Shown here one piece after another: positions 1 to 63,655 of a DNA stretch of 64,000 nucleotides. Location: positions 476 to 64,475 of the forward strand of contig VENA01000016.1 in assembly GCA_009711785.1 (NCBI GenBank), written 5' to 3'. A program made the position numbers and the translations under genes. The stretch is from Bacillota bacterium. Lineage in GTDB: Bacteria > Bacillota > Clostridia > Tissierellales > MES13. The notes under the pieces were generated by a model. The model saw only the letters and a program-made list of their open reading frames with translations. It was not told the origin of the DNA and ran no database searches. How positions within the stretch are numbered: the first letter of the stretch is position 1; each line of letters opens with the position of its first letter.

Positions 1-16
1 GATATCAAAATTAATT

Positions 17-283
17 TCACTGGTTTTGCCTCCTTTTTATAGTACTAGAAATAACTATTGAAGCTATAAAACTTATTAATGCATATACTAAAACCACATC
101 TAAAAAGTAAGTTTCTCTTAATATAAAAGAAACTATAGATATTATTACAATTGTTTTAGTTCCTATTACGTTTATAGAAATTAATCTATCTGCTTGACTA
201 GGACCTTTAATGGCTCTGTACATGCATAAAATAATAGTTATTGATAGAAATATTATTGAACCTATTAATACCTTTGTTATCAT
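17..283 (-). CDS. mrpF: Mrp/Mnh-type multisubunit cation:proton antiporter subunit F
   Basis: 88-aa small polytopic membrane protein. The motif YRAIKGPSQADRLISINVIGTK is typical of the MrpF/PhaF family. It directly follows the mrpE-like gene. Confidence 0.8.
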   Translation of the reverse strand: MITKVLIGSIIFLSITIILCMYRAIKGPSQADRLISINVIGTKTIVIISIVSFILRETYFLDVVLVYALISFIASIVISSTIKRRQNQ

Positions 284-286
284 AAA

Positions 287-748
287 CTATCTCTCCATTT
301 TAAGTAATATTTTTTCAAACTTAGAATCTATTACATCTTCTATATATTCCTTTTTTAAACAATGTACCCTTAATTTATTATCCTTTAATGTTACAGTAAG
401 GGTTCCTGGTGTTAATGTTATTGAATTTGCAAGTATTGCTTTATTAATATCTGATTTAAGCTTTGTCTCATATACAATCATCTCTGGTGATATGTCCATT
501 TTAGGACTTAAAACCACTTTAGCTACTAAAAAATTTGCTGTAATTATTTCTTTTATTAATAAAGTTAAATACTTTAACATATTTTTTATCTTTTCAGTAT
601 CAAATTTTTTTAAATTGAAACTAAAGGAATCTTTATTTAATATAAAAACTATAATAGATACAACAAATCCTAAAATAAAGACCTCTAGATTAAGTTTTTC
701 CGCTAAGAATATCCAAAAAACTAGAAATGATAATAAGTATTTTTTCAT
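287..748 (-). CDS. mrpE: Mrp/Mnh-type cation:proton antiporter subunit E
   Basis: MnhE-like membrane protein (N-terminal TM pair, ITLTPGTLTV motif). The ORF track starts at 790, but the ATG at 748 (MKKYLLSF...) has a GGAGG Shine-Dalgarno 8 nt upstream. A sigma-54 promoter occupies 786-801, so I call the shorter start. Confidence 0.75.
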   Translation of the reverse strand: MKKYLLSFLVFWIFLAEKLNLEVFILGFVVSIIVFILNKDSFSFNLKKFDTEKIKNMLKYLTLLIKEIITANFLVAKVVLSPKMDISPEMIVYETKLKSDINKAILANSITLTPGTLTVTLKDNKLRVHCLKKEYIEDVIDSKFEKILLKMER

Positions 749-785
749 AGTCAAACCTCCAAATAAGTATTCACCCATATATAGT

Positions 786-801
786 TGCAATTATTATGCC
801 A
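786..801 (-). promoter_or_regulatory. sigma-54 (RpoN) -24/-12 promoter: TGGCAT-AATAA-TTGCA
   Basis: The minus strand reads TGGCATAATAATTGCA, giving the canonical GG-N10-GC spacing of TGGCAC-N5-TTGCA. It lies about 25-40 nt upstream of the mrpE SD and ATG(748). Confidence 0.7.
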
Positions 802-882
802 TGTTATTTTAAATATATAATTATTTTCTCTTTATTTAGGTTAATCACTGCTCTTTAGAAATATCCCTTTTTTCAAAAAAAT

Positions 883-913
883 AAAAAAGGAATCGAAATT
901 TATTCGATTCCCG
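883..913 (-). terminator. Rho-independent terminator after the sigma-54 activator gene
   Basis: The minus strand reads GGGAATCGAA-taaat-TTCGATTCC followed by TTTTTTATTTTTTT. Confidence 0.7.
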
Positions 914-921
914 TAAATAAA

Positions 922-1000
922 GTTTCATTTTGATACACTTTTTAAAATCATCAGCTTCTGAATGTGTTGCATTTTGATACATGTGTTTCATTTTAGAACA
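922..1000 (-). promoter_or_regulatory. Three direct copies of a 16-nt motif GTT(T/G)CATTTT(G/A)(A/G)(T/A)ACA; candidate upstream activator sites
   Basis: Copies at 922-937, 966-981 and 985-1000. Two sit in a TGT-N13-ACA context. They lie 120-215 bp upstream of the sigma-54 promoter and next to, or overlapping, the 3' end of the activator gene. Confidence 0.4.
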
Positions 1001-2988
1001 TATCTCAAATCATATTTATCTATTTTCCTATATAAAGTACTTCTACCTATTCCTAAAATCTTTGCTGCTAAGGCCATATTACCATCTACCTTTTGTATCG
1101 TTTTTAATATAGAAATCTTTTCTATCTCATCTAAGGATAATAAATCATCTGTAATATTTAAATCCTTTGCATTTGGGTTTGATTTCATATGTTTAGGTAA
1201 ATGTTCATAATTAAGGGATTCATTTTCATTAGCTAAATTTATAACAAGTTGCATTACATTTTGAAGTTCCCTTACATTTCCTGGCCAGTTATAACTCATC
1301 ATACCTCTATAAAAACTTCTATCTATGCCTTTAACTTTTTTACCCATTTTTATTTGAAACTTTTCTAAAAAATAATCTATTAAAATTTTTATATCTTCTT
1401 TTCTTTCATTTAAAGATGGAGTATGAATAGGCATAACATTTAATCTATAAAATAAGTCACTTCTAAAGTTTCCTTTATCAACTTCTTCTTTTATATCCTT
1501 ATGGGTAGCAGCTATTACCCTAACATCTACAGGTATTACATCATGGCCACCTATTCTGACTATTTCCTTTGTCTCTAAAACCCTTAAAAGATTTGATTGG
1601 GTATCAAGGGGCATATCTCCAATTTCATCTAAAAATATGGTCCCTCCATCGGCTAATTCAAATTTTCCGGGATGTCCCCCGCGTTTAGCTCCAGTAAAGG
1701 CACCTTCAACATATCCAAATAATTCACTTGCTACTAACTCTCTAGGTATAGCACCACAATTTAAAAATACAAAGGGTTTTGATTTTCTTTTGCTTTCATT
1801 ATGAATGGCCTGTGCAAACATTTCCTTTCCTGTTCCACTTTCTCCTAATAATAAAACTGTAGTATTGGTTTTAGCAGCCTGAGCTGCTATTTTTTTTGCC
1901 TTGTTTATTTCTATACTTTCTCCTAAAATATCATCAAAATTAAATCTTGCTTCAGCACCTACTATTTTATTAACTAAATTGTGTACAACCTTTGCTTCTC
2001 TAAAGGTAAATACAGCTCCTTCAACATTATCATTACAATTATCTTTAATAGGTGTTATATTTATAATACAAGTAATCTTTCTACCCTTTTTAGTTTTAAA
2101 ATAAACTTCCTCTTCTTCATACTTTTTACCATTTTTTATTACATTCATTATTTTATCACTATGTTCTTTGTGTAGAACACATTTAATATTATTTTCTTGA
2201 ATTTCTTCTTCTTCATAGTTTAATATCCTACAAGCAAATTCATTTATTCCTCTTATAATACCCTTTTTATCAACTGAAACTAATCCTTCTGTTATCGATT
2301 CAACTATGGCATGATAATGCTGATTAGCCATTTTAAGTCTTCTATTCATAAATCCTAATTTCATTTCGTTTTCTATAGCCTCAGCAGACGCATGGACCAT
2401 TCCAAGGGTATGGGGATGAACCTTTTTACAAGGTCCTGACATACTTAAAACACCAATTGTTTTTCCTTTCTTATCCTTAATTGGACAAGCAGAAGTAGTC
2501 CAATCATGGTATTCTTTACAGTAATGTTCTCCTCCTAAAACCTGTATTGGTTTCTTTGTTATTAAAGCTGTACCTATGGCATTTGTTCCGATAATTTCTT
2601 CCCGTACATTACATCCTTTATGCATATTATGGTGTGCTTGATGTTTTATAAGTTTCTTATCACCACTTAATTCTAATACATATCCTTCACTATCTGTAAG
2701 TCTAACTATTAACCCAGTATTTCCTACAATCTTATATAATGTATTCATAAAGGGTTTTGCAGTTGTTAATAAAAAGTTATACTTCCCATATTTTTCTTCT
2801 AATTCTTTCTTAGTTAGTTCTTTACCTTTGTTTGGTTTATAAGGGTCTACCCCTTTTCTTTCACATCTTAACCAGGAATCAGCTATAATATCTCTTAAAA
2901 GCTCTCTTTTTAATATTCCCTCTGATGTATATAACTCCCAAGCTTTAATAAAGCCTTCGTTTTTACTTAAAAGCTTTTTAGCTGGCAT
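988..2988 (-). CDS. sigma-54-dependent transcriptional activator (AcoR-like N-terminal sensor with GAF/PAS, AAA+ domain, C-terminal Fis-type HTH)
   Basis: Walker A GESGTGKE, sigma-54 contact loop GAFTGA, Walker B FLDEIGDM, C-terminal HTH (LGIGRSTLYRKI). The N-terminal ADSWLRCERKGVDP motif is typical of AcoR-family sensors. Confidence 0.9.
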   Translation of the reverse strand: MPAKKLLSKNEGFIKAWELYTSEGILKRELLRDIIADSWLRCERKGVDPYKPNKGKELTKKELEEKYGKYNFLLTTAKPFMNTLYKIVGNTGLIVRLTDSEGYVLELSGDKKLIKHQAHHNMHKGCNVREEIIGTNAIGTALITKKPIQVLGGEHYCKEYHDWTTSACPIKDKKGKTIGVLSMSGPCKKVHPHTLGMVHASAEAIENEMKLGFMNRRLKMANQHYHAIVESITEGLVSVDKKGIIRGINEFACRILNYEEEEIQENNIKCVLHKEHSDKIMNVIKNGKKYEEEEVYFKTKKGRKITCIINITPIKDNCNDNVEGAVFTFREAKVVHNLVNKIVGAEARFNFDDILGESIEINKAKKIAAQAAKTNTTVLLLGESGTGKEMFAQAIHNESKRKSKPFVFLNCGAIPRELVASELFGYVEGAFTGAKRGGHPGKFELADGGTIFLDEIGDMPLDTQSNLLRVLETKEIVRIGGHDVIPVDVRVIAATHKDIKEEVDKGNFRSDLFYRLNVMPIHTPSLNERKEDIKILIDYFLEKFQIKMGKKVKGIDRSFYRGMMSYNWPGNVRELQNVMQLVINLANENESLNYEHLPKHMKSNPNAKDLNITDDLLSLDEIEKISILKTIQKVDGNMALAAKILGIGRSTLYRKIDKYDLRYVLK

Positions 2989-2998
2989 TTATCTCATC

Positions 2999-3772
2999 CT
3001 ATCTTTTTATATTATTTATCATATTCCACATTTCATCAGCAGAACGTATACTTCTTGTATTAATTTGATAAGCCCTTTGTGTTATAAGCATATCTGTCAT
3101 TTCTTTAGCTATATCTACATTTGATTTTTCTAAATATCCTTGTTTAATGGCTGATTTATTATTAGTAATTTTACTCTCATTAATACTAAAATCATTAACT
3201 GAAAAATAATTTCCATTTTCATTTATTAATGAATCACTGTCTGTAACTTTAAATAATGGAATTTCTCCTACTAATTCTTTTTCTCCATCAACTAAAGAAT
3301 ATATTTCACCATTTTCTTTTATTTTTATATTATCATTTAATTTTTCTCTCTGATTTTCAACATAAACTAAATTTCCGTTAGTATCTACTAAGTTCCCTTC
3401 AGTGTTTACACTAAAACTTCCATCCCTAGTAAGAAGGATTTTTCCAGAATTTTTTTCAGTTACACCAAAGAAACCTTCTCCTTTTATGGCTAAATGACTA
3501 CCTTTATAAGACTTTTCTAATATACCTTGGGTATAATCTCTATCCATATTTTTAGTTTTAACTCCAACTCCTGATAATATCCCATCTTCACTAATATTTT
3601 CTGAAAAAGGTGTTCCATTATCATCAAGTGAATCATATACTAAATCCTCAAATTTAACTTCCGCCTTTTTATATCCTGTTGTCTGTACGTTAGATATATT
3701 ATTAGATACAATATCCATTTTTCTTTGAAATGCCTTTAATCCTGATTTTGAAACATTTAAAGCTTTAAACAT
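2999..3772 (-). CDS. flgG: flagellar basal-body rod protein (FlgG family)
   Basis: N-terminal rod motif SNNISNVQTTGYK and C-terminal motif GYLEKSNVD...MLITQRAYQ. Confidence 0.85.
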   Translation of the reverse strand: MFKALNVSKSGLKAFQRKMDIVSNNISNVQTTGYKKAEVKFEDLVYDSLDDNGTPFSENISEDGILSGVGVKTKNMDRDYTQGILEKSYKGSHLAIKGEGFFGVTEKNSGKILLTRDGSFSVNTEGNLVDTNGNLVYVENQREKLNDNIKIKENGEIYSLVDGEKELVGEIPLFKVTDSDSLINENGNYFSVNDFSINESKITNNKSAIKQGYLEKSNVDIAKEMTDMLITQRAYQINTRSIRSADEMWNMINNIKR

Positions 3773-11890: not shown

Positions 11891-12658
11891 TTATCCCCCA
11901 AAAAGTGTTAATATCCTATCCATTTTATATGGTAAAGTTTCTATTAAATTAATCATCTGATTACCTATAGCCGGTAATAAAACTAGCATAGTTAATATTC
12001 CAACTAAAACCTTTAATGGTAATCCTAAAATAAATATATTTATCTGTGGTACTGTTCTTGCTAATAATCCAACAACAATAGTTGATAATAATAATATAAA
12101 TATTAATGGAACAGCTATTTGAAAAGCTATTACAAAACTTTCTGTAAAAAACTTTCCTATTGTATCAGCTCCTAAATTCCCTAAATCAAATTTAGTTAAT
12201 GAAACTAATTCAAAACTTTTAGCTAGAGAATATAATAAATAGTGATGTCCATCAATCACAAAAAAAAGTATAAGTCCTAACCAATAATAAATCTTACCAT
12301 ATAAAGATATTCTATTTCCTGTAACAGGATCAAAGGAACTTGCTATTGCAAAACCTGATTGAAAATCTATCATCTGACCTGCCATTTGAAGACTTACAAA
12401 TATTATGTTAGTAAGATATCCTAATATAAGTCCAAATATTGTTTCTTTTATAATTAACATAAAATAAGATAACATATTATTATTTATTATTCCTTCATCT
12501 AAGGGTATAACATTAAAAAGTAAAAATGAAAATATAAACACAAAACCTATTTTAAGAAGTTTTGGCATTGATTTCATAGAAAAAATCGGAGAACTAACCA
12601 TAAAACTTCCGATTCTTACAGATATTAAAAAAAATAATTGAAAACCAACTATAGACAT
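11891..12658 (-). CDS. fliR: flagellar export apparatus protein FliR
   Basis: 255-aa polytopic membrane protein between fliQ and flhB. Confidence 0.9.
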   Translation of the reverse strand: MSIVGFQLFFLISVRIGSFMVSSPIFSMKSMPKLLKIGFVFIFSFLLFNVIPLDEGIINNNMLSYFMLIIKETIFGLILGYLTNIIFVSLQMAGQMIDFQSGFAIASSFDPVTGNRISLYGKIYYWLGLILFFVIDGHHYLLYSLAKSFELVSLTKFDLGNLGADTIGKFFTESFVIAFQIAVPLIFILLLSTIVVGLLARTVPQINIFILGLPLKVLVGILTMLVLLPAIGNQMINLIETLPYKMDRILTLFGG

Positions 12659-53621: not shown

Positions 53622-55688
53622 TTATATATATTTTTTAGAAAGTAATTTCTCAAAGGTAGTCTCACTAACAGGTTTACTGAAAAAATAACCTTGTAACATG
53701 TCACACATCTTATCTTTAAGGAAATGTAAATGTTCATTTGTCTCTACACCCTCTGCAACAATATCAACACCTAAACTCTTAGCCATAGATATTATAGCAG
53801 TTATAATCTTTATATTTTCTATTTTTTTAATATCCATTATAAAGGATTTATCTATTTTTAGTTTATTTATATTAAGCTCCTTTAACTTATTTAATGAAGA
53901 ATACCCAGTCCCAAAATCATCCATGGATATTTTTATTCCAAGCTTTTTAAGTTTATTTAAATTTATAATTATTCTATCAAAGTTTTTAGCACAAACAGAT
54001 TCTGTTATTTCAAGTTCTAAAAACTCAGAAGAAAGTTTTGTTTCTTTTAAGATATTTATAACTATATCGGGAAAATCTAATTGCTCTAATTGTTTACTAG
54101 ATATATTTACAGCCATAAAAATAGGTTTAAATCCTTGATCTATCCATTTTCTATTTTGAATACATGCATTCTTTAAAACCCAATTTCCTATTTTATAAAT
54201 CATTCCACTGCTTTCAGCTATGGGTATAAACTTATCTGGCGGTATAAAACCCATTTCTTCACTTTCCCATCTAAGTAATGCCTCTGCCCCTATAACCTTT
54301 CCTGTTTTAGTACTTACCACTGGCTGATATTTAATATATAGCTCATCATTTTCTATTGAATTTCTTAATTTATTTTCTATAGTAAATTGTTCCCATAGTT
54401 CTGAGTTAAAATTCTTATCATATAGTTTGATTTTATCTTCTTTACAATCTTTAGCCTTATACATAGCAGTTTCAGCATTCTTTATAAGAAAACTAGAGTT
54501 TAATCCATGGTAGGGATATAAAGAAAGTCCTATACTAGCAGATAAATATATATGATGTGTATCTATTATAAAGGGCTTATTAAATAAATCTAATATCCTT
54601 TTAGATATTTCAAATATCTTCCTAATATTTGTACTTTCATATAATAAAATAAACTCATCTCCACCAAACCTAGATATAACATCAAACACATCGTCATATT
54701 CCTTAAGTCTAATTGAAATTTCTTTTAATATTAAATCCCCTACTATATGCCCTAAATTATCATTTATTTTACTAAATCCATCTATATCTATTAAAAGTAT
54801 TGATACTTTTTCATTCTTTTTTATTTTCTTATCAAGTTCGTTTATGAAAAAGTCTTTATTATATAGTTTAGTTAAACTATCATTATCTGTTAAAAACTTA
54901 TACTTTCTCTTTATGTCTAATTCCTCTGTTACATCATTAACAATTGTATGTAATAATACTTTATCATTTATTTTAATTGGTTCAATGAAAGCTTTAACAT
55001 CCCTAATTTCACCATTTGAAAGTTTAGTTTTTAAACCATAAGCTCTTTTTTTTCCTGATTTGACCTTTTTTATTTCTTTGTTTAAATTCTCTTTACTTAA
55101 CACATTTATATCTTCGGTTTTTAACTTCAAAAGTTCACTTTTACTATATCCATAGTATTTACAAGCTGATATATTTGCATCTACTATTTTATTATTTTGA
55201 GGGTCAATTAATAGCATGATTGCATTATTATGTCTAAAAAAGTTTATATATTCCTCTTCTTTTTGAGTTAGTAAATTAAACATCTCACTTTCTTTAGAAA
55301 CATCCCTAATAAAAACATTTAATAAATTACCACTTTCCTTTACAAAGGATATTTCAGCAAGAAAAGAATTTTCATTTGCTTTTTTTAGTAACCACCTAAA
55401 GTTTCTTTTATCCTTAATAATTTTTTCAAAGGCTTTAGTAGTACTTTCATCAATTTTCTCATCATAATATATAAGATCATAAAAGTTTTTACCCACTAAC
55501 TTATATTTGTTAGAATATTCAAACAAATTTAAAGCTAGTTTATTGCACTCTATGATTTTTTCTCTATCTAGTATAATCACCGCTTCAGGGAACTTATTAA
55601 AAACTTTTTTATAATAATCATCGTTTAATAAAAATCTATTATTTAATTGTGTCATCATACTTCCCCCTTTGTTGTAAAAACCTTTCAT
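53622..55688 (-). CDS. PAS-PAS-GGDEF-EAL protein (c-di-GMP synthase/phosphodiesterase)
   Basis: RFGGDEFILL (intact GGDEF), EALLRW (EAL), DDFGTGYSSL, and two N-terminal PAS-like segments. Confidence 0.9.
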   Translation of the reverse strand: MKGFYNKGGSMMTQLNNRFLLNDDYYKKVFNKFPEAVIILDREKIIECNKLALNLFEYSNKYKLVGKNFYDLIYYDEKIDESTTKAFEKIIKDKRNFRWLLKKANENSFLAEISFVKESGNLLNVFIRDVSKESEMFNLLTQKEEEYINFFRHNNAIMLLIDPQNNKIVDANISACKYYGYSKSELLKLKTEDINVLSKENLNKEIKKVKSGKKRAYGLKTKLSNGEIRDVKAFIEPIKINDKVLLHTIVNDVTEELDIKRKYKFLTDNDSLTKLYNKDFFINELDKKIKKNEKVSILLIDIDGFSKINDNLGHIVGDLILKEISIRLKEYDDVFDVISRFGGDEFILLYESTNIRKIFEISKRILDLFNKPFIIDTHHIYLSASIGLSLYPYHGLNSSFLIKNAETAMYKAKDCKEDKIKLYDKNFNSELWEQFTIENKLRNSIENDELYIKYQPVVSTKTGKVIGAEALLRWESEEMGFIPPDKFIPIAESSGMIYKIGNWVLKNACIQNRKWIDQGFKPIFMAVNISSKQLEQLDFPDIVINILKETKLSSEFLELEITESVCAKNFDRIIINLNKLKKLGIKISMDDFGTGYSSLNKLKELNINKLKIDKSFIMDIKKIENIKIITAIISMAKSLGVDIVAEGVETNEHLHFLKDKMCDMLQGYFFSKPVSETTFEKLLSKKYI

Positions 55689-55761
55689 TTAGAAAGTTAT
55701 CAAAGTGTAAATAGTCTGTTTAAGCTTACCATATATTTCTTTATAATTCAACAAATTCTGT

Positions 55762-55795
55762 AAAAAAATAAAGCCTTGATTAAAAAATCAAGACT
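55762..55795 (-). terminator. Rho-independent terminator after pyc
   Basis: AGTCTTGATT-tttt-AATCAAGGCT followed by TTATTTTTTT on the minus strand. Confidence 0.7.
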
Positions 55796-55841
55796 TTTAT
55801 ATAAGAGGTAAGTTAAGGGGGGCCAAAACTTACCGCCTTGC

Positions 55842-58800
55842 CTATTTAAGTTTTATTAGCAGTTCTCCAGATTCAACCTGTTCTCCTTCTTTTGCTACTA
55901 CAGTATCTACCTCTGCTGCTTGTGATGCTATTACATTAGTTTCCATTTTCATAGCCTCTATAACCGCTACAGTTTCATTTTCTTTCACTTTATCTCCCGG
56001 CTCAACTAATATTTTTAATACATTTCCTGGAATGCTTGCTCCAATTTCTAAAGGATTATTAGGATCAGCCATCTTTGTAAACTCTGCTTCCTGTTTTATA
56101 CCATTTGCTTTATCATATATTTTAATTTCTCTTCTACTATCATTTACTTCAAATATAATATTTCTTTTACCTTCTTCGTCTAATTTACCTACTTCAAGTA
56201 ATTTTATTACAAGTACCTTTCCTTCAGCTATTTCAATTTCACATGTTTCACCTTCATTTAAACCATGGAAGAATATATCACTACCCATATTACTAAAGTC
56301 TCCATATTCTTTTATATAGTCTAGATATTCTTCAAATACCTTTGGATATAAACCATAGCTTATTAACTGTTTAGTTGTAGGCTTAAAGTCATACTTTTCC
56401 TCAAGATATTTTCTTGTTTTATCAAAATCCATCGGTTCTAGTAACTCCCCTGGTCTGCAAGTTATAGGCTCTTCATCTTTAAGAACTAACTTTTGAAGTT
56501 TTTCAGGGAAACCTCCTTGAGGTTGACCCATCATACCTTTAAAGTATGATACTACTGAGTCTGGGAAAGATTTTCCTTTAGCCTTTTCATATATATTTTC
56601 AGAAGTTAAATCATTTTGAACCATAAATATAGCTAAATCTCCTACTACCTTTGATGATGGAGTAACTTTAATTATATCTCCTAGCATTAAATTAACTTCC
56701 TTATACATATTCTTAACTTCATTAAATCTATGTCCTAGACCAAAACTTTCTACCTGGGGTTTAAGGTTAGAATATTGACCTCCTGGAAGTTCATATTTAT
56801 ATATTTCAGCAGTTGCTGATTTTAAATCTGATTCAAATTCTTCATATACTGGTCTTACAGCTCTCCAGTAATCAGATATCTTTTGTATTTTATTAGTTTC
56901 AAAACCTGTTTCTCTACTAGTATTATTTAAAGCTGCAACTATTGAATTAAGTGCAGGTTGACTTGTTAAGCCTGACATAGAGTTTATAGCTGTATCAACT
57001 ATATCTACTCCTGCTTCTGAAGCCATTAATATTGTAGCTACACCATTTCCACTAGTATCATGGGTATGAAGGTGTATAGGAATACTTATTTCATTTTTTA
57101 AAGCTTTAATTAACTTATAAGCAGCGTGAGGTTTTAATAATGCTGACATATCCTTAATACCAAGAATATGAGCCCCTGTTTTTTCTATTTGTTTTGCCAT
57201 ATTAACATAGTAATTTAAACTATATTTATCTCTTTTTTCATCTAATATATCCCCTGTATAACATAAACAAGGTTCTGCAATTTTTCCTGTCTTTAATACT
57301 TCATCTATGGCAACTTCCATACCTTTTAACCAGTTTAAGGAGTCAAATATTCTAAATACATCTATTCCTCCCTTAGCTGATTGTTTTATAAGATTTCTTA
57401 TAATGTTATCTGGATAGTTCTTATATCCAACACCATTTGAACCTCTAATAAGCATTTGAAATAAAATATTTGGCATTCTTTTTCTTAATTTTTCTAATCT
57501 CTCCCAAGGTGATTCCTTTAAGAATCTATACGCAACATCAAAGGATGCTCCGCCCCACATTTCTAGAGAGAATAAATCTTTTTCTAAAACAGACATTGAC
57601 TTAGCTATTTTAATCATATCTTTAGTTCTTACCCTTGTAGCCATTAATGATTGTTGAGCATCTCTCATTGTAGTATCTGTAAGTAGTAATTTATTTTGCT
57701 TTTTTATCCACTCTACAACACCATCAGGACCATTTTTATCAAGGATTTGTTTAGTCCCTGATAAATTCTTAACTTCACCAACATCTGGCACAATAGGTAC
57801 ATCAAATTCTTTTTTATTACCCTTAGTTTCGTTTACAACCTTTTCACCGATATAATTTAATACTCTTAATTCAACATCGGCTTTAGGAGTAATATCAAAT
57901 AATTCAGGATTGTTTGATACAAATCCAGTATCACAAATTCCTTCTTTAAAAGCGTCGTGATTTAAAACATTTATTAAAAATGCAGTGTTAGTTTTAACAC
58001 CTCTTATTTTAGTTTCTCTAATAGATCTACTTGCCTTTCTAATAGCATCTTCAAAAGTTCTAGCCCAGGAAGTTGTCTTAACTAATAAACTATCATAATA
58101 AGGACTTATAACAGCACCTGTAAATCCATTACCTCCATCAAGTCTTATTCCAAATCCAGAGCCAGTTCTATAAATATCAATTTTACCAGTATCCGGTGCA
58201 AAATTATTAGAAGGGTCTTCTGTTGTTATTCTACATTGAATCGAATATCCCCGTACATTAATATCTTCTTGAGATTTTATACCTATTTCATTAGAATCTA
58301 GTGAATATCCTTCAGCTATTAAAATTTGACTTTGTACTATATCTATTCCAGTAACCAATTCAGTAACCGTATGTTCAACTTGTATTCTAGGATTTGTTTC
58401 TATAAAGTAATGATCTCCATAGGCATCAACTAAAAACTCTACAGTACCGGCACTTCTATAATCAACAGCCCTAGCTATCTTAAGAGCATCTTCACATATT
58501 TCTTTTCTTTTCTTTTCATTTAAACTTATTGCCGGTGTAAATTCAATTACCTTTTGGTGTCTTCTTTGTATTGAACAATCCCTTTCATATAGATGTACTA
58601 AATTACCTTTCTTATCTCCTAGTATTTGTACTTCTATATGCTTTGGTTTCTCTATATATTTCTCTACAAATATATCATCTATTCCAAAGGCTTTTTTTGC
58701 TTCATTCTTAGCACTTTGATATTCCTTTAAAAGGTCTTTTTCTTCTCTTACAATCCTCATACCTCTACCACCACCACCGGCAGCTGCTTTTAAAATAACT

Positions 58801-59270
58801 GGATATCCACAGTATTCAGCGTATTCTTTGACCTCTTCTTCATTCCTTGCAGCCTTTTCTATTCCTGGTATAGTCGGTACTCCGACATTGTTAGCAACTT
58901 TTTTAGATTTTATCTTATCTCCTAGTTTATCCATCATTTCATGGGTTGGTCCAATAAACTCAATACCTGCTTCTTCACATTTTCTCGCAAATTCAGTATT
59001 CTCAGATAAAAAACCATATCCAGGATGTATAGCATCTACACCTTTATTAACTGCTAATTTAATAATTTCTTCAATATTTAAATAAGCTTCTATTGGTCCT
59101 TTGTTTTTTCCTATTAAATATGATTCGTCAGCCTTTGTTCTAAATAAAGAATATTTATCTTCATCAGAATATATAGCAACAGACCTTATCCCGAGTTCAT
59201 TACAAGCTCTGAATATCCTTATGGCAATTTCCCCTCTATTAGCCACGAGAATTCTTTTGAATTTTTTCAT
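55842..59270 (-). CDS. pyc: pyruvate carboxylase
   Basis: 1142 aa. Biotin carboxylase N-terminus (ILVANRGEIAIRI), a carboxyltransferase TIM barrel (DTTMRDAQQS), and a C-terminal biotinyl motif EAMKME. Confidence 0.95.
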   Translation of the reverse strand: MKKFKRILVANRGEIAIRIFRACNELGIRSVAIYSDEDKYSLFRTKADESYLIGKNKGPIEAYLNIEEIIKLAVNKGVDAIHPGYGFLSENTEFARKCEEAGIEFIGPTHEMMDKLGDKIKSKKVANNVGVPTIPGIEKAARNEEEVKEYAEYCGYPVILKAAAGGGGRGMRIVREEKDLLKEYQSAKNEAKKAFGIDDIFVEKYIEKPKHIEVQILGDKKGNLVHLYERDCSIQRRHQKVIEFTPAISLNEKKRKEICEDALKIARAVDYRSAGTVEFLVDAYGDHYFIETNPRIQVEHTVTELVTGIDIVQSQILIAEGYSLDSNEIGIKSQEDINVRGYSIQCRITTEDPSNNFAPDTGKIDIYRTGSGFGIRLDGGNGFTGAVISPYYDSLLVKTTSWARTFEDAIRKASRSIRETKIRGVKTNTAFLINVLNHDAFKEGICDTGFVSNNPELFDITPKADVELRVLNYIGEKVVNETKGNKKEFDVPIVPDVGEVKNLSGTKQILDKNGPDGVVEWIKKQNKLLLTDTTMRDAQQSLMATRVRTKDMIKIAKSMSVLEKDLFSLEMWGGASFDVAYRFLKESPWERLEKLRKRMPNILFQMLIRGSNGVGYKNYPDNIIRNLIKQSAKGGIDVFRIFDSLNWLKGMEVAIDEVLKTGKIAEPCLCYTGDILDEKRDKYSLNYYVNMAKQIEKTGAHILGIKDMSALLKPHAAYKLIKALKNEISIPIHLHTHDTSGNGVATILMASEAGVDIVDTAINSMSGLTSQPALNSIVAALNNTSRETGFETNKIQKISDYWRAVRPVYEEFESDLKSATAEIYKYELPGGQYSNLKPQVESFGLGHRFNEVKNMYKEVNLMLGDIIKVTPSSKVVGDLAIFMVQNDLTSENIYEKAKGKSFPDSVVSYFKGMMGQPQGGFPEKLQKLVLKDEEPITCRPGELLEPMDFDKTRKYLEEKYDFKPTTKQLISYGLYPKVFEEYLDYIKEYGDFSNMGSDIFFHGLNEGETCEIEIAEGKVLVIKLLEVGKLDEEGKRNIIFEVNDSRREIKIYDKANGIKQEAEFTKMADPNNPLEIGASIPGNVLKILVEPGDKVKENETVAVIEAMKMETNVIASQAAEVDTVVAKEGEQVESGELLIKLK

Positions 59271-59301
59271 ATTATCGCCCCGCCTTATTTTATTTTTTTG
59301 T

Positions 59302-60303
59302 TTATTTTAAGATCTTTATTATTTCATCAGTAAATTCCTTAGTGCCTAATTTACCTCCAAGATCCTTTGTTAACTTATCCTTTTGTAAAAATATTTCACT
59401 CATTGCTTTTTCTATTTTACTAGCTGCTTCATATTCGTCTATGGATTTAAGCATCATAATACCAGAAAGAATTGTTGATGTTGGATTAGCAATATTTTTA
59501 CCTGCAATATCTGGTGCTGAACCATGAACTGATTCAAATACTGCTATATCATCACCAATATTAGCCCCGGGTGCTATACCTAACCCACCTATTAATCCTG
59601 CTGACATGTCAGATAAGATATCTCCATAAAGATTAGGTGCAACTATCACATCATATTCTTTAGGATTTTGAACAAGCTTCATACTCATAGCATCCACTAT
59701 TACATCTTCAAATTCAATATCTTTATAATTTTTAGCTACATCCTTAGCGCATTTTAAAAACAAACCATCGGAAAGTTTTAATATATTTGCTTTATGAACA
59801 GCAGTTACCTTTTTCTTTCCTTCCTTATAAGCAAGTTCAAAGGCAAATTTAGCTATTCTTTTACTGGCCTTCTTTGTAATAATTTTTATACTTTCTGCTG
59901 CTACATCGGATATATTATGTTCAATTCCTGCATATAAACCTTCAGTGTTTTCTCTTACAATTATAAAATCTATATCTTCAAAAAGGGATTTAACTCCTTT
60001 ATAACTTTTTATTGGTCTTACGTTAGCATAAAGGTTAAGCACTTGTCTTAAATAAACATTAACGCTTCTAAAACCGACACCAACAGGAGTGGTTATTGGT
60101 CCCTTTAATGCAACTTTATTTTTCTTTATACTTTCTATTACTTCATCAGGTAATGGAGTATCATATTTCTCTAAAGCTATAGTTCCTGCATCTACTATAT
60201 CCCACTTAATATCTACATCTGTTGCATCTATAATTCTTTTTGTAGCTTCTGTAACTTCAGGACCTATTCCATCACCAGGTATAAGTGTTATTTTCTTACT
60301 CAT
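59302..60303 (-). CDS. icd: isocitrate dehydrogenase, small homodimeric IDH/IPMDH-family type
   Basis: 333 aa. [13 protein letters not shown] and NLYGDILSD motifs. Clustered with aconitase and a citrate synthase analogue. Confidence 0.8.
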
Positions 60304-60324
60304 TCATATTTCCCCTTTCAAAAG

Positions 60325-62238
60325 TTAGTTAGATTTTATTAGATTTAATAATCCTCCTGCTAAAAGCATTTCTTTCTGTCTGTTAGTTATAGTTAATTTT
60401 AACTTATATTCCTTATCCTTAGATTTTAAAATAATAAAATCATTATCTATCTGAGTTAGTAAGTCTTTTATTACTAATCCATCTAAAAGATTTATATCAT
60501 CATAATCACTTTCATCAACAAAACATAAAGGAAGTATTCCATTATTAATTAAATTTTGTTTATGGATTCTTGAAAATGATTTAGCTATAACAGCTTTAAC
60601 TCCTAAATATAATGGAGCTAATGCAGCATGTTCACGACTTGAACCTTGACCATAATTTGTTCCAGCAACAATTATTCCACCATCATTTTCCTTAGCTCTT
60701 TTAGGAAAATCTTCATCACATGGTGTTAAACAATACTCAGATAAATATGGGATATTAGATCTATAAGGTAATAACTTAGCATTTGAAGGCATTATATGAT
60801 CCGTAGTAATATTATCCCCAACCTTAATTAAAACATTACCTTCTATTTCATTTTCTAAAGCTTTAGTCTCAGGGAATGGCTTAATATTTGGTCCCCTTAC
60901 AATTGAAACATCATTTTCAGCCTTAGCTGGAGCTTTTATTAAATTATCATTTATTAAAAACTTTTCTGGCATTTTAACATCTAAATCATAATCATAGTCT
61001 AAAGGATTAGTCATAACACCAGTAATCGCAGAAACAGCAGCTACTTCTGGACTTACTAAATAAATATCTGCTGAAGTTGTCCCTGAACGACCCTTAAAGT
61101 TTCTATTAAACGTTCTTAAAGACACACCATTAGTATTAGGTGCTTGCCCCATTCCTATACATGGTCCACAGGCACATTCTAATATTCTAGCTCCTGCTGA
61201 AACAAGTTTTGCTAATGCACCATTTTCTGCAAGCATATTTAAAACTTGCTTAGAACCTGGAGATATTACTAAGGAAACATCTTCTGATATTGTTTTTCCA
61301 TCTAATATATTACTAACCTTCATTAAGTCCATATATGATGAGTTTGTACAACTACCAATAGCTATTTGATTAACCTTTTTTCCTTCTAATTCCTTTACCT
61401 TTACAACATTATCAGGACTATGGGGACAAGCAATTAAAGGTTTAAGTTCATTTAGATTAATTTCTATCTCTTCATCATACTTAGCTTCTTTATCTGCCTT
61501 TAATTCAGTAAAATCTTCTTCTCTATTTTGAGCTTTTAAAAATTCATAAGTTACTTCATCAGAAGGGAATATACTAGTTGTAGCACCTAACTCTGCTCCC
61601 ATATTTGTAATAGTTGCCCTTTCAGGTACTGTTAAACTTTTTAAACCTTCTCCGCTATATTCAAATATTTTATTAACTCCACCTTTAACCGAACATATCT
61701 CTAAAACCTTTAATATAATATCCTTTGCCGATACTCCAGGCTTTAATTTTCCTGTTAATTTTACATTAACTATTTTAGGCATATCAATATAATACTCTCC
61801 ACCTGCCATAGCAACTGCAACATCTAATCCACCTGCACCGATAGCAAGCATACCTATACCTCCAGCTGTAGGAGTATGACTATCTGAACCAAGTATCGTC
61901 TCACCAGGAACTCCAAATCTTTCAAGATGAACCTGATGGCATATACCATTACCAGGCTTTGAAAAATAAATCCCATGTTTCTTTGCTATTGACTGTATAT
62001 AAAGATGATCATCTGCATTTTCTGGTCCTGCTTGTAATGTATTGTGATCAATATATGCTACAGATCTTTTCGTTTTTACTCTATCTATACCTAAGGCTTC
62101 AAATTGTAAATAAGCCATTGTTCCTGTTGAATCCTGGGTTAAAGTCTGATCTATTTTTAAACCTATACCTTCACCTTTTTTCATTTCACCTTTTACTAAA
62201 TGTTTCTTTATTATTTTTTCTGCTACTGTAAGTTTCAT
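60325..62238 (-). CDS. acn: aconitate hydratase
   Basis: 637 aa. Fe-S cluster ligand motifs (GSDSHT, IGSCTNSS, CGPCIG) and a swivel domain (GQGSSREHAA). Confidence 0.9.
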   Translation of the reverse strand: MKLTVAEKIIKKHLVKGEMKKGEGIGLKIDQTLTQDSTGTMAYLQFEALGIDRVKTKRSVAYIDHNTLQAGPENADDHLYIQSIAKKHGIYFSKPGNGICHQVHLERFGVPGETILGSDSHTPTAGGIGMLAIGAGGLDVAVAMAGGEYYIDMPKIVNVKLTGKLKPGVSAKDIILKVLEICSVKGGVNKIFEYSGEGLKSLTVPERATITNMGAELGATTSIFPSDEVTYEFLKAQNREEDFTELKADKEAKYDEEIEINLNELKPLIACPHSPDNVVKVKELEGKKVNQIAIGSCTNSSYMDLMKVSNILDGKTISEDVSLVISPGSKQVLNMLAENGALAKLVSAGARILECACGPCIGMGQAPNTNGVSLRTFNRNFKGRSGTTSADIYLVSPEVAAVSAITGVMTNPLDYDYDLDVKMPEKFLINDNLIKAPAKAENDVSIVRGPNIKPFPETKALENEIEGNVLIKVGDNITTDHIMPSNAKLLPYRSNIPYLSEYCLTPCDEDFPKRAKENDGGIIVAGTNYGQGSSREHAALAPLYLGVKAVIAKSFSRIHKQNLINNGILPLCFVDESDYDDINLLDGLVIKDLLTQIDNDFIILKSKDKEYKLKLTITNRQKEMLLAGGLLNLIKSN

Positions 62239-62257
62239 ACCCTGTCCTCCTTTTATT

Positions 62258-63655
62258 TTAAACTGCTTCTATATCATCATCTTTTAATAAATTTGGTAAA
62301 TGCAGTGAAACTATTCTTTTTAATTCTTTATTATGAATTACAGTTGTTCTTCCATTTTCATATTGTTCATCGATCCATATCTTTATAGGACGTAATCTAG
62401 GATCTTTCTTAGTTATTTTATTATCTCCCTTTAATCTAAAGAAAGTATTTACCCAGGCTGCAATACCTGCAAGTCCTGAATATTGATTAATTGCCACTAT
62501 AGCAGGTCTATCTAATATTTTTTCTGTATCAAATGCATTATAAATCTCTTCATTTTTTAACATTCCATCAGCATGTATTCCTGCCTTTGTTACATTAAAT
62601 TCACTACCTACAAAGGGTGTGTCAGAATGTATTTTATAATTAAGCTCTCTTTGGAAATACTCAGCCACTTCAGTAATTACCTTAAGATTTAAATCATCAA
62701 GTGATCCTTTTAATTGACCATATTGTACAAGCATTGCTTCTAGTGGACAATTTCCAGTTCTTTCACCTATACCAAAAAGAGTTGTATTTATTGAAGATGA
62801 TCCATATAACCAAGCTGCTAAAGAATTATCTACAACTGAGTAAAAATCATTGTGTCCATGCCATTCTATTTGTTCTGATTTAATATCTGTATTATATTTA
62901 AGTCCATGTATAATAGCAGGTATACTTCTTGGTAATTCAACTCCATCAAATGCTACTCCAAGACCTAAAGTATCACAAGCTCTTATTTTTATATCAAGCT
63001 CTGAACCTTTAGATAACTCTAATAAATTATTAACTAAAGGCACTACAAAACCATAAAAATCAGCCCTTGTTATATCCTCTAGGTGACATCTTGGTACTAT
63101 TCCATTTTCTAAAGCCTTTTCAGCTAAAGATAAGTACATATTCATAGCTTTACGTCTATCAACATTTAATTTTTTAAATATATGATAATCTGAACAAGAC
63201 ATTAACATACCAGTCTCTTTAATGTTCATTTTCTTTACTAATTCTAAATCCTCTTCCTTTGCTCTTATCCATGATGTGATTTCTGGAAAATCATAACCTT
63301 TATTCATACATTCTTTTACAGCTAATCTATCCTTTTCTGAATATAGAAAAAACTCAGTCTGTCTAATTATCCCAGAGCCATTATCTAGTTTATGAAGATA
63401 TTCATAAAGTTTAACAATCTGTTCTACCGTAAATGATGACATAGATTGCTGTCCATCTCTGAATGTTGTATCAGTAATCCATATATTCTCAGGTAAATTT
63501 TTAGGATAATGAATATTATTAAATTTTAATCTTGGTACCTCTGAATAAGGAAAAATACCTTTATATAAATTAGGTTTTTTCACATTATTTAAATTATAAT
63601 TGTAGGCATTTGATTTTTTCGTCGAGTTTTTTGTAAAAAGAAATTTATCTTTCAT
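62258..63655 (-). CDS. Re-face citrate synthase (isopropylmalate/homocitrate synthase family)
   Basis: 465 aa. ITDTTFRDGQQS HMGL-like barrel. Its size and its gene context with acn and icd match the clostridial Re-citrate synthase described in Clostridium kluyveri. Confidence 0.7.
   Translation of the reverse strand: MKDKFLFTKNSTKKSNAYNYNLNNVKKPNLYKGIFPYSEVPRLKFNNIHYPKNLPENIWITDTTFRDGQQSMSSFTVEQIVKLYEYLHKLDNGSGIIRQTEFFLYSEKDRLAVKECMNKGYDFPEITSWIRAKEEDLELVKKMNIKETGMLMSCSDYHIFKKLNVDRRKAMNMYLSLAEKALENGIVPRCHLEDITRADFYGFVVPLVNNLLELSKGSELDIKIRACDTLGLGVAFDGVELPRSIPAIIHGLKYNTDIKSEQIEWHGHNDFYSVVDNSLAAWLYGSSSINTTLFGIGERTGNCPLEAMLVQYGQLKGSLDDLNLKVITEVAEYFQRELNYKIHSDTPFVGSEFNVTKAGIHADGMLKNEEIYNAFDTEKILDRPAIVAINQYSGLAGIAAWVNTFFRLKGDNKITKKDPRLRPIKIWIDEQYENGRTTVIHNKELKRIVSLHLPNLLKDDDIEAV

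Follow-up and report, generated by a model that had tools for sequence, protein, structure and literature searches.

A predicted sigma-54 module with its own activator gene in front of a group-3 Mrp antiporter operon in Clostridia

Layout of the locus

The window analyzed here is a 64-kb stretch of contig VENA01000016.1 from a member of the Bacillota, with a G+C content of 28.6%. At its low-numbered end lies the beginning of an Mrp-type antiporter operon, preceded by a predicted sigma-54 promoter, putative enhancer sites and the gene of an activator. The genes of this module are all on the minus strand. Read in that direction, the order is a flgG-like gene, the activator gene, three repeats, a hairpin, a -24/-12 promoter element, a GGAGG sequence, mrpE, mrpF and the end of the window. 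An earlier note, made from the letters of the window alone, had proposed that the sigma-54 promoter, the enhancer sites and the adjacent activator drive mrpE from the ATG at position 748. Comparative genomics supports this proposal: the promoter is found in 67 of 67 orthologous genome loci and in 4 of 4 metagenome loci with the activator, versus 0 of 59 loci without it.

The promoter element (TGGCATAATAATTGCA, 801-786, minus strand) was read directly from the sequence. Its GG and GC are exactly 10 bp apart, which is the geometry claimed for it earlier, and the element is kept in all 67 orthologous loci. It fits the Clostridiales sigma-54 consensus, TTGGCATNNNNNTTGCT (PMC6615313), and is the sole match to TGGCA-N6-TTGCW on both strands of the window. 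In shuffled windows 0.10 matches are expected, and at least one exact match was obtained in 7 of 100 shuffles. The element is intergenic, oriented toward mrpE and separated by 38 nt from ATG 748. Transcription would start near position 775. Between 990 and 760 on the minus strand no sigma-70-like promoter scores, and an Rfam scan of 1-3100 detected no RNA family in the leader or the spacer.

The first gene of the Mrp operon, mrpE (748-287, minus strand), encodes 153 aa and matches the Pfam family MNHE with E = 1.3e-33. Its ATG stands 6 nt behind a Shine-Dalgarno sequence, GGAGG (759-755, minus strand), and the same GGAGG-ATG layout can be found in orthologs. A longer open reading frame begins at TTG 790. 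This is the wrong start, because it lies inside the promoter, because the MNHE match begins only at residue 20 of the longer frame, and because the mrpE orthologs begin, behind their GGAGG, at the position equivalent to 748. The preference for 748 over 790 expressed in the earlier note thus holds. An exact-sequence look-up of the 153-aa MrpE returned no match because gene callers took the longer start.

The second gene, mrpF (283-17, minus strand), encodes 88 aa and matches MrpF_PhaF with E = 1.6e-13; the window ends 16 nt past its stop codon. Both Pfam scores are above the family cut-offs. NCBIfam models for Na+/H+ antiporter subunit E match mrpE, whose homologs carry the name 'Na+/H+ antiporter subunit E', and the products of both genes stay below all equivalog cut-offs.

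Two further open reading frames were treated as spurious. One, of 48 aa (845-991, minus strand), has no Pfam match and overlies the enhancer sites and the terminator. The other, of 200 aa (210-812, plus strand), is antisense to mrpE.

The three repeats, predicted to be enhancer sites, also lie on the minus strand. Site 1 (TGTTCTAAAATGAAACA, 1000-984) has an offset of -199 relative to the T of TGGCA, scores 20.3 with a position weight matrix, and overlaps the TGA stop codon of the activator gene (990-988). Site 2 (TGTATCAAAATGCAACA, 981-965; offset -180; score 21.5) follows 19 bp after site 1, and site 3 (TGTATCAAAATGAAACT, 937-921; offset -136; score 18.2) comes 44 bp after site 2. The repeats have a 17-bp TGT-N11-ACA context, with one mismatch in the ACA arm of site 3, which ends in ACT. 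The earlier note had the three copies and their coordinates right and gave the spacing as TGT-N13-ACA, where the actual spacing is N11.

The corresponding sites of orthologous loci, 105 of which are exact TGT-N11-ACA sequences, give the consensus TGTATCAAAATGAAACA, a near-palindrome of the form TGTATCA-N3-TGATACA. The three repeats of the window are the three best matches to this family consensus anywhere in its sequence, and no comparable cluster of sites occurs elsewhere in the 64 kb. In Clostridiales, TGT-N10-12-ACA sites located 100-250 bp upstream are the norm for activators of this kind (PMC6615313).

A feature absent from the earlier note is an intrinsic-terminator-like hairpin between site 3 and the promoter (GGGAATCGAA-TAAAT-TTCGATTCCT followed by a T-run, 912-875, minus strand). 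The stem-loop (912-888) has a 10-bp stem and a 5-nt loop. Its RNA fold has a predicted energy of -13.5 kcal/mol (z = -3.56), and a terminator scan found it as well. The hairpin probably ends the activator transcript and shields the mrp genes from read-through.

The activator, or enhancer-binding protein, is encoded at 2988-988 on the minus strand and has 666 aa. Pfam assigns it GAF, PAS, Sigma54_activat (PF00158, E = 5.4e-70), AAA_lid and HTH_8 (E = 2.3e-13) domains. The Walker A motif GESGTGKE (residue 382) and the GAFTGA motif (residue 429) are intact, in agreement with the GAF/PAS-AAA+(GAFTGA)-HTH architecture first assigned to the adjacent gene. An AlphaFold2 model of the full-length protein has a mean predicted local distance difference test score of 79, and its top Foldseek matches are the AAA+ domains of FleQ, ZraR and NtrC1. 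A model of the N-terminal 215 residues has a score of 86.5.

Among NCBIfam models, the best match is the DhaR model NF008485, which aligns end to end with 430 bits and so falls below its cut-off of 551; the activator reaches no equivalog cut-off. It is DhaR-like in architecture and in sensor fold, yet it is not DhaR. In residues 154-197 of the GAF sensor (window about 2398-2529), E154, H155, H161, C168, H191 and H193 are invariant or nearly so among orthologs. The conserved stretch reads EHYCKxYHxWTSSACPI...VHPHTLGM, and its VHPHTLGM part is absent from DhaR. The set of conserved His and Cys residues may form a metal or ligand site.

The ATG of the activator gene (2988) is only 10 nt past the stop codon of the flgG-like gene (3772-2999). 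This leaves no room for a promoter or terminator between the two genes, so the activator is probably the last gene of a long flagellar/sigma-D operon, both here and in a 98%-identical metagenome-assembled genome (locus L001). In Crassaminicella the activator gene instead follows an amidase gene, with a gap of about 190 nt.

Farther upstream, minus-strand open reading frames of at least 140 aa beyond 8 kb (window 3000-48000 and 53622-63655) are all co-directional with the mrp module. The neighbors scanned include genes for FlhF, a MinD-like ATPase, a PilZ protein, a sigma-28-type factor, FliD, FlgK and CheA, and glycosyltransferase and methyltransferase genes. Still farther on are a PAS-GGDEF-EAL protein (53622-55688), pyruvate carboxylase (55842-59270), aconitase and an HMGL-like enzyme.

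Conservation of the module in Clostridia

Relatives of the locus were collected by a scan with the conserved N-terminal sensor of the activator, using one genome per species. The scan gave 80 loci from many genera of Clostridia, among them Crassaminicella, Petroclostridium, Anaerosolibacter, Maledivibacter, Marinisporobacter, Wukongibacter, Tepidibacter, Brassicibacter, Acidaminobacter and Fusibacter, together with several Clostridium species. Activator orthologs (50-69% identity) occur in about 70 genomes, and in 67 loci an ortholog is directly followed by mrpE-mrpF. The module is kept across different upstream contexts, such as the flagellar genes of the window and the amidase gene of Crassaminicella. 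Complete genomes with the module include Crassaminicella thermophila (CP042243), Petroclostridium sp. X23, Clostridiaceae bacterium 35-E11, Wukongibacter and Fusibacter sp. JL216-2; C. thermophila, Tepidibacter formicigenes and C. homopropionicum are examples of carriers that can be cultivated.

A strict promoter pattern, TGG[CT]A[CT]-N5-T[TC]GC[ATG], occurs in the spacer between activator and mrpE in 65 of these 67 loci. The remaining two have GGGCAT-N5-TTGCA and TGGCTT-N5-TTGCA, with GG-N10-GC intact. Elsewhere, in another 2.89 Mb, the pattern matches 27 times, which corresponds to 0.24 matches expected in the 25.4 kb of spacers; several of the 27 are located about 190 nt behind activator orthologs that have genes other than mrpE next to them. 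The TGG, A, TT and GC of the promoter are invariant, and the flanking columns are at background composition.

The distance from the 3' end of the promoter to the start codon has a median of about 43 nt and is mostly 24-62 nt, compared with 38 nt in the window. A few genomes have longer leaders of 100-285 nt (loci L006, at 12218-12502, L014, L017, L022, L053 and L055). Inspection of those in L006 and L014 revealed nothing recognizable.

The enhancer sites are conserved in position as well. In the orthologous loci they fall into three clusters, whose offsets from the T of TGGCA are about -196, -177 and -133, and the window sites at -199, -180 and -136 belong to these clusters. Two to three sites are detected in the zone from -235 to -95 in 62 of the 67 loci. 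Site density is 19.1 per kb in this zone versus 0.019 per kb elsewhere, an enrichment of about 1000-fold that is somewhat inflated because this very zone supplied the training sites of the position weight matrix.

The opposite comparison starts from mrpE. A metagenome search with an MrpE alignment gave 80 further loci, which were counted where enough upstream DNA was available. With the activator upstream of mrpE, the promoter is present in 4 of 4 loci (three strict matches and one GGGCAT variant). Without it, a -24/-12 motif within 400 nt is found in none of 59 loci, in 39 of which mrpE is the first gene.

Individual genomes illustrate the same pattern. The full module is found in C. homopropionicum and Ca. 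Petromonas. In C. tetani, Sporosalibacterium faouarense and a C. lundense-like genome, an operon with the same genes stands without activator, enhancer sites or -24/-12 element and carries sigma-A-like -10 boxes instead. Predicted sigma-54 control is not general to this type of Mrp operon and is found only where the activator gene is present. This joint change of promoter type and activator gene speaks most strongly for activator and promoter working together. The anatomy of the locus, its conservation and the strict co-occurrence with the activator gene are shown by these data.

The 7 shuffled windows with an exact match illustrate how a -24/-12 element, and repeats with it, might come about by chance in AT-rich intergenic DNA. 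The comparative data refute this explanation, which has next to no probability left: 65 strict matches are observed against 0.24 expected, the motif is wholly absent where there is no activator, and the sites are enriched about 1000-fold.

In a few genomes the activator ortholog precedes other genes. In a metagenome-assembled Clostridium sp. genome (L060, 12178-13969) and in two further loci (Peptoclostridium L066, 10543-14074, and L069, 9507 onward), the ortholog and a sigma-54 promoter stand before an MrpD-like (Proton_antipo_M) gene, without mrpEFGBC at that place. L066 has two such MrpD-like genes, and in Peptoclostridium litorale an MrpE homolog is encoded on another contig. In Geosporobacter subterraneus (L037, 6474-7196) and a metagenome-assembled Thermotaleaceae genome (L031, 6165-6880), ortholog and promoter precede the gene of a 207-aa membrane protein with a PsiE-like N-terminus and a CorC_HlyC transporter-associated C-terminus.

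The overlap of site 1 with the activator stop codon, like the few genomes in which an MrpD-like pair or the PsiE/CorC membrane protein takes the place of mrpE, could also mean that the repeats serve another role. They might be involved in autoregulation at the 3' end of the activator gene or bind a different regulator, with the true target of the activator elsewhere. The distance from activator stop codon to promoter varies between 152 and 390 nt, while the offsets of the sites stay fixed to the promoter and not to the stop codon. The variant genomes, too, have a sigma-54 promoter directly after the activator gene, and the window holds no second cluster of such sites. This explanation is very improbable.

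Roughly 20-25 of 65 orthologous loci show a clear hairpin with a T-run at the place that corresponds to the one in the window (-110 to -80). Many of these stems share a GATTG...CAATC core in otherwise different sequences. The shared core may reflect common descent or a second binding site.

Another explanation accepts the promoter as real and gives it a secondary part, in which the mrp genes are expressed mostly by read-through from the activator or flagellar transcript, or from an unrecognized sigma-A promoter, with sigma-54 adding a conditional boost. The activator gene, 10 nt after the flgG stop codon, is probably within a long upstream transcript; the activator-less orthologous operons use sigma-A-like promoters; and a clear terminator is present in only about a third of the loci. 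Against this, the hairpin of the window is strong, at -13.5 kcal/mol with a U-run, and the minus strand from 990 to 760 has no scoring sigma-70-like site. Moreover, none of the 67 genome loci lacks the -24/-12 element, a sign that it matters for fitness. A merely secondary promoter is therefore considered unlikely.

The content of the operon beyond the window can be read from related loci. The contig of the 98%-identical assembled genome is arranged in the same way, with mrpG and mbhD as the next genes. In Crassaminicella thermophila (L002), where the activator is 66% identical and the upstream neighbors are different, the operon consists of mrpE-F-G-mbhD-mbhE-mnhB-mnhC and several Proton_antipo_M (MrpD/A-like) genes. 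The order in the orthologous loci is E-F-G-MbhD-MbhE-B-C-D-D(N-terminal domain)-D. A full subunit set, with G, MbhD, MbhE, MnhB, MnhC and 3-6 Proton_antipo_M genes, is present in L002, L083 and L084, and the operon comprises 10 genes in C. tetani and C. homopropionicum.

By its gene content the operon is a stand-alone, redox-less Mrp antiporter of group 3. Operons of this group have an order other than ABCDEFG and no intact mrpA, with separate pieces or MrpD copies instead (PMC5703873, PMC8415708). A redox complex of the Mbh/Mbx type was rejected: there is no NiFe-hydrogenase-like or NuoBCDHI-like module, and unrelated genes follow the operon in L002, L083 and L084. The presumed function is Na+(K+)/H+ antiport, by analogy with known Mrp systems.

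Just 3' of the mrp operon in Crassaminicella thermophila lies a second sigma-54-type promoter, TTGGTATAAAATTTGCG (L002, 21827-21843). The gene behind it starts MEKICVIGAGTMGSG and looks like a 3-hydroxybutyryl-CoA dehydrogenase gene, an arrangement that resembles published butyrate regulons of the CrbR/AhcR type. This promoter is a sign that Crassaminicella thermophila makes use of sigma-54.

A proposed mechanism

Activator gene, three enhancer sites, terminator, sigma-54 promoter and group-3 Mrp operon can be read together as one self-contained module. On the sequence comparisons described above, this reading is given a probability of about 85%. For the way in which the module would work, we infer binding, hexamer assembly, looping, the start site and the signal.

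The activator, a cytoplasmic protein with a GAF-PAS sensor of the DhaR/AcoR type, an AAA+ domain and a helix-turn-helix, would bind the three 17-bp inverted repeats as dimers. The sites are centered about 154, 198 and 217 bp upstream of the predicted transcription start. An intracellular signal would convert the bound protein into an ATP-hydrolyzing hexamer, for which three dimer sites could supply the subunits.

The hexamer would then loop over the AT-rich spacer of about 100 bp and remodel the sigma-54 polymerase already bound at TGGCAT-N5-TTGCA. ATP-driven opening of the closed complex would lead to a start near 775 and to a leader of about 27 nt that carries the GGAGG in front of ATG 748. 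The hairpin would end the activator transcript arriving from the flagellar operon, and the mrp genes would stay off unless the activator fires.

Several points weigh against this reading, the training of the matrix mentioned above among them. Because the loci share descent, they cannot be counted as independent cases. Transcription from the activator or flagellar genes may in part run through the terminator. The presence of rpoN in the genome is assumed: neither an RpoN-box regular expression nor tblastn, with B. subtilis SigL and the C-terminus of E. coli RpoN as queries, gave a match in the window and 167 loci. Finally, the sensor fold does not disclose the cue, because DhaR, its closest relative of solved structure, responds to protein partners and is active at a sigma-70 promoter.

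Relatives of the AcoR/MimR type are associated with small carbonyl or alcohol compounds. For the module described here, the signal could be an intracellular cue connected with the Na+ or pH load of the cell, or with the energy metabolism from which the Na+ gradient arises, a suggestion that is offered tentatively and with less than even odds. The cue may, for instance, be such a load or the state of Na+-coupled energy metabolism, perhaps relayed by a protein partner as for DhaR with DhaK and DhaL. Direct sensing of ion or energy status by this domain is no more than a possibility.

In wider terms, the loci would represent a widespread regulon of which no description was found, provisionally 'MrpR', in which a DhaR/AcoR-type activator exerts all-or-none control over Mrp in many marine, saline and sediment Clostridia and senses an internal cue. 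Taken as a whole, this proposal is rather doubtful; that the regulon as such exists is very likely.

A sigma-54 promoter gives no transcription in the absence of its activator, so a large and costly membrane complex, which converts Na+ and H+ gradients into one another, would be expressed on a strictly conditional basis. These anaerobes would then sense an internal cue before they commit to Na+/H+ exchange. The transcriptional control of Mrp antiporters has barely been studied, and ion homeostasis and bioenergetics would join the known sigma-54 repertoire of clostridia. The module is spread over roughly 70 genomes of many genera, and relatives without the activator, such as C. tetani, offer a natural comparison of sigma-54 with sigma-A control. 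Three defined 17-bp sites and a defined sensor domain make the signal that controls Mrp in anaerobes accessible to experiment.

Relation to known systems

What is new about the module is its target; the proposed mechanism is a standard one. A survey by Nie et al. (2019) described 39 activator regulons in 57 Clostridiales genomes, a repertoire dominated by amino-acid, sugar and fermentation pathways (PMC6615313). Mrp is not the target in any of the 39 regulons, and neither the main text of that paper nor one supplementary file contains the terms mrp, mnh, antiporter or sodium. In the main review on Mrp, promoter, transcription and sigma are not mentioned, and literature searches found no link between sigma-54, RpoN or SigL and Mrp, Mnh or antiporters. 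These searches and Table 1 of the Clostridiales survey are in line with the earlier note, which knew of no described sigma-54 control of an Mrp antiporter. The remark of the note on the E-F-first gene order needs a correction: the order does differ from the classical mrpABCDEFG, yet it is not new, being known from mrpEFGBB'CD and mbhABC of Pyrococcus furiosus. The E-F-G order and the MbhD/MbhE subunits were thus already known.

For the regulator, the closest parallels in arrangement are the clostridial AcoR-acoABCL, AdhR-adhA and PrdR-prdABDEF systems (PMC6615313). In these, too, a GAF/PAS-AAA+-HTH_8 activator adjoins its target, and multiple TGT-N10-12-ACA sites are found 100-250 bp upstream of TTGGCAT-N5-TTGCT. 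They differ in the target, which here is a multi-subunit cation/proton antiporter and not a catabolic or fermentation pathway.

The sensor has a homolog in E. coli DhaR (phmmer E = 1.5e-15), and the AlphaFold2 model of the sensor superimposes on the DhaR structure (PDB 4lrx) with a template modeling score of 0.82 and a root-mean-square deviation of 1.3 A. The activator described here has a GAFTGA motif, a predicted sigma-54 promoter and, in addition, the VHPHTLGM stretch. DhaR, in contrast, is not known to have a GAFTGA loop that functions; its target promoter is of the sigma-70 type, and the proteins DhaK and DhaL are what it senses.

For the antiporter, the nearest relatives in gene order are mrpEFGBB'CD and mbhA-H (the Mbh/Mbs module) of Pyrococcus furiosus. 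In both cases E, F and G come first, MbhD and MbhE subunits replace the C-terminus of MrpA, and there are multiple MrpD-like genes. The systems differ in their hosts, which here are Clostridia, and in the predicted control by sigma-54. Unlike Mbh, the operon has no hydrogenase or redox module; in Crassaminicella, C. tetani and C. homopropionicum the MrpD/A-like genes are its last ones.

The classical Mrp/Mnh/Sha operons, such as mrpABCDEFG of Bacillus and mnh of Staphylococcus, are homologous in E and F to the genes of the window, and in G, B, C and D to those of the orthologous operons. They differ from the clostridial operon in gene order; in the latter, moreover, MrpA is split and an extra antiporter-like subunit is present.

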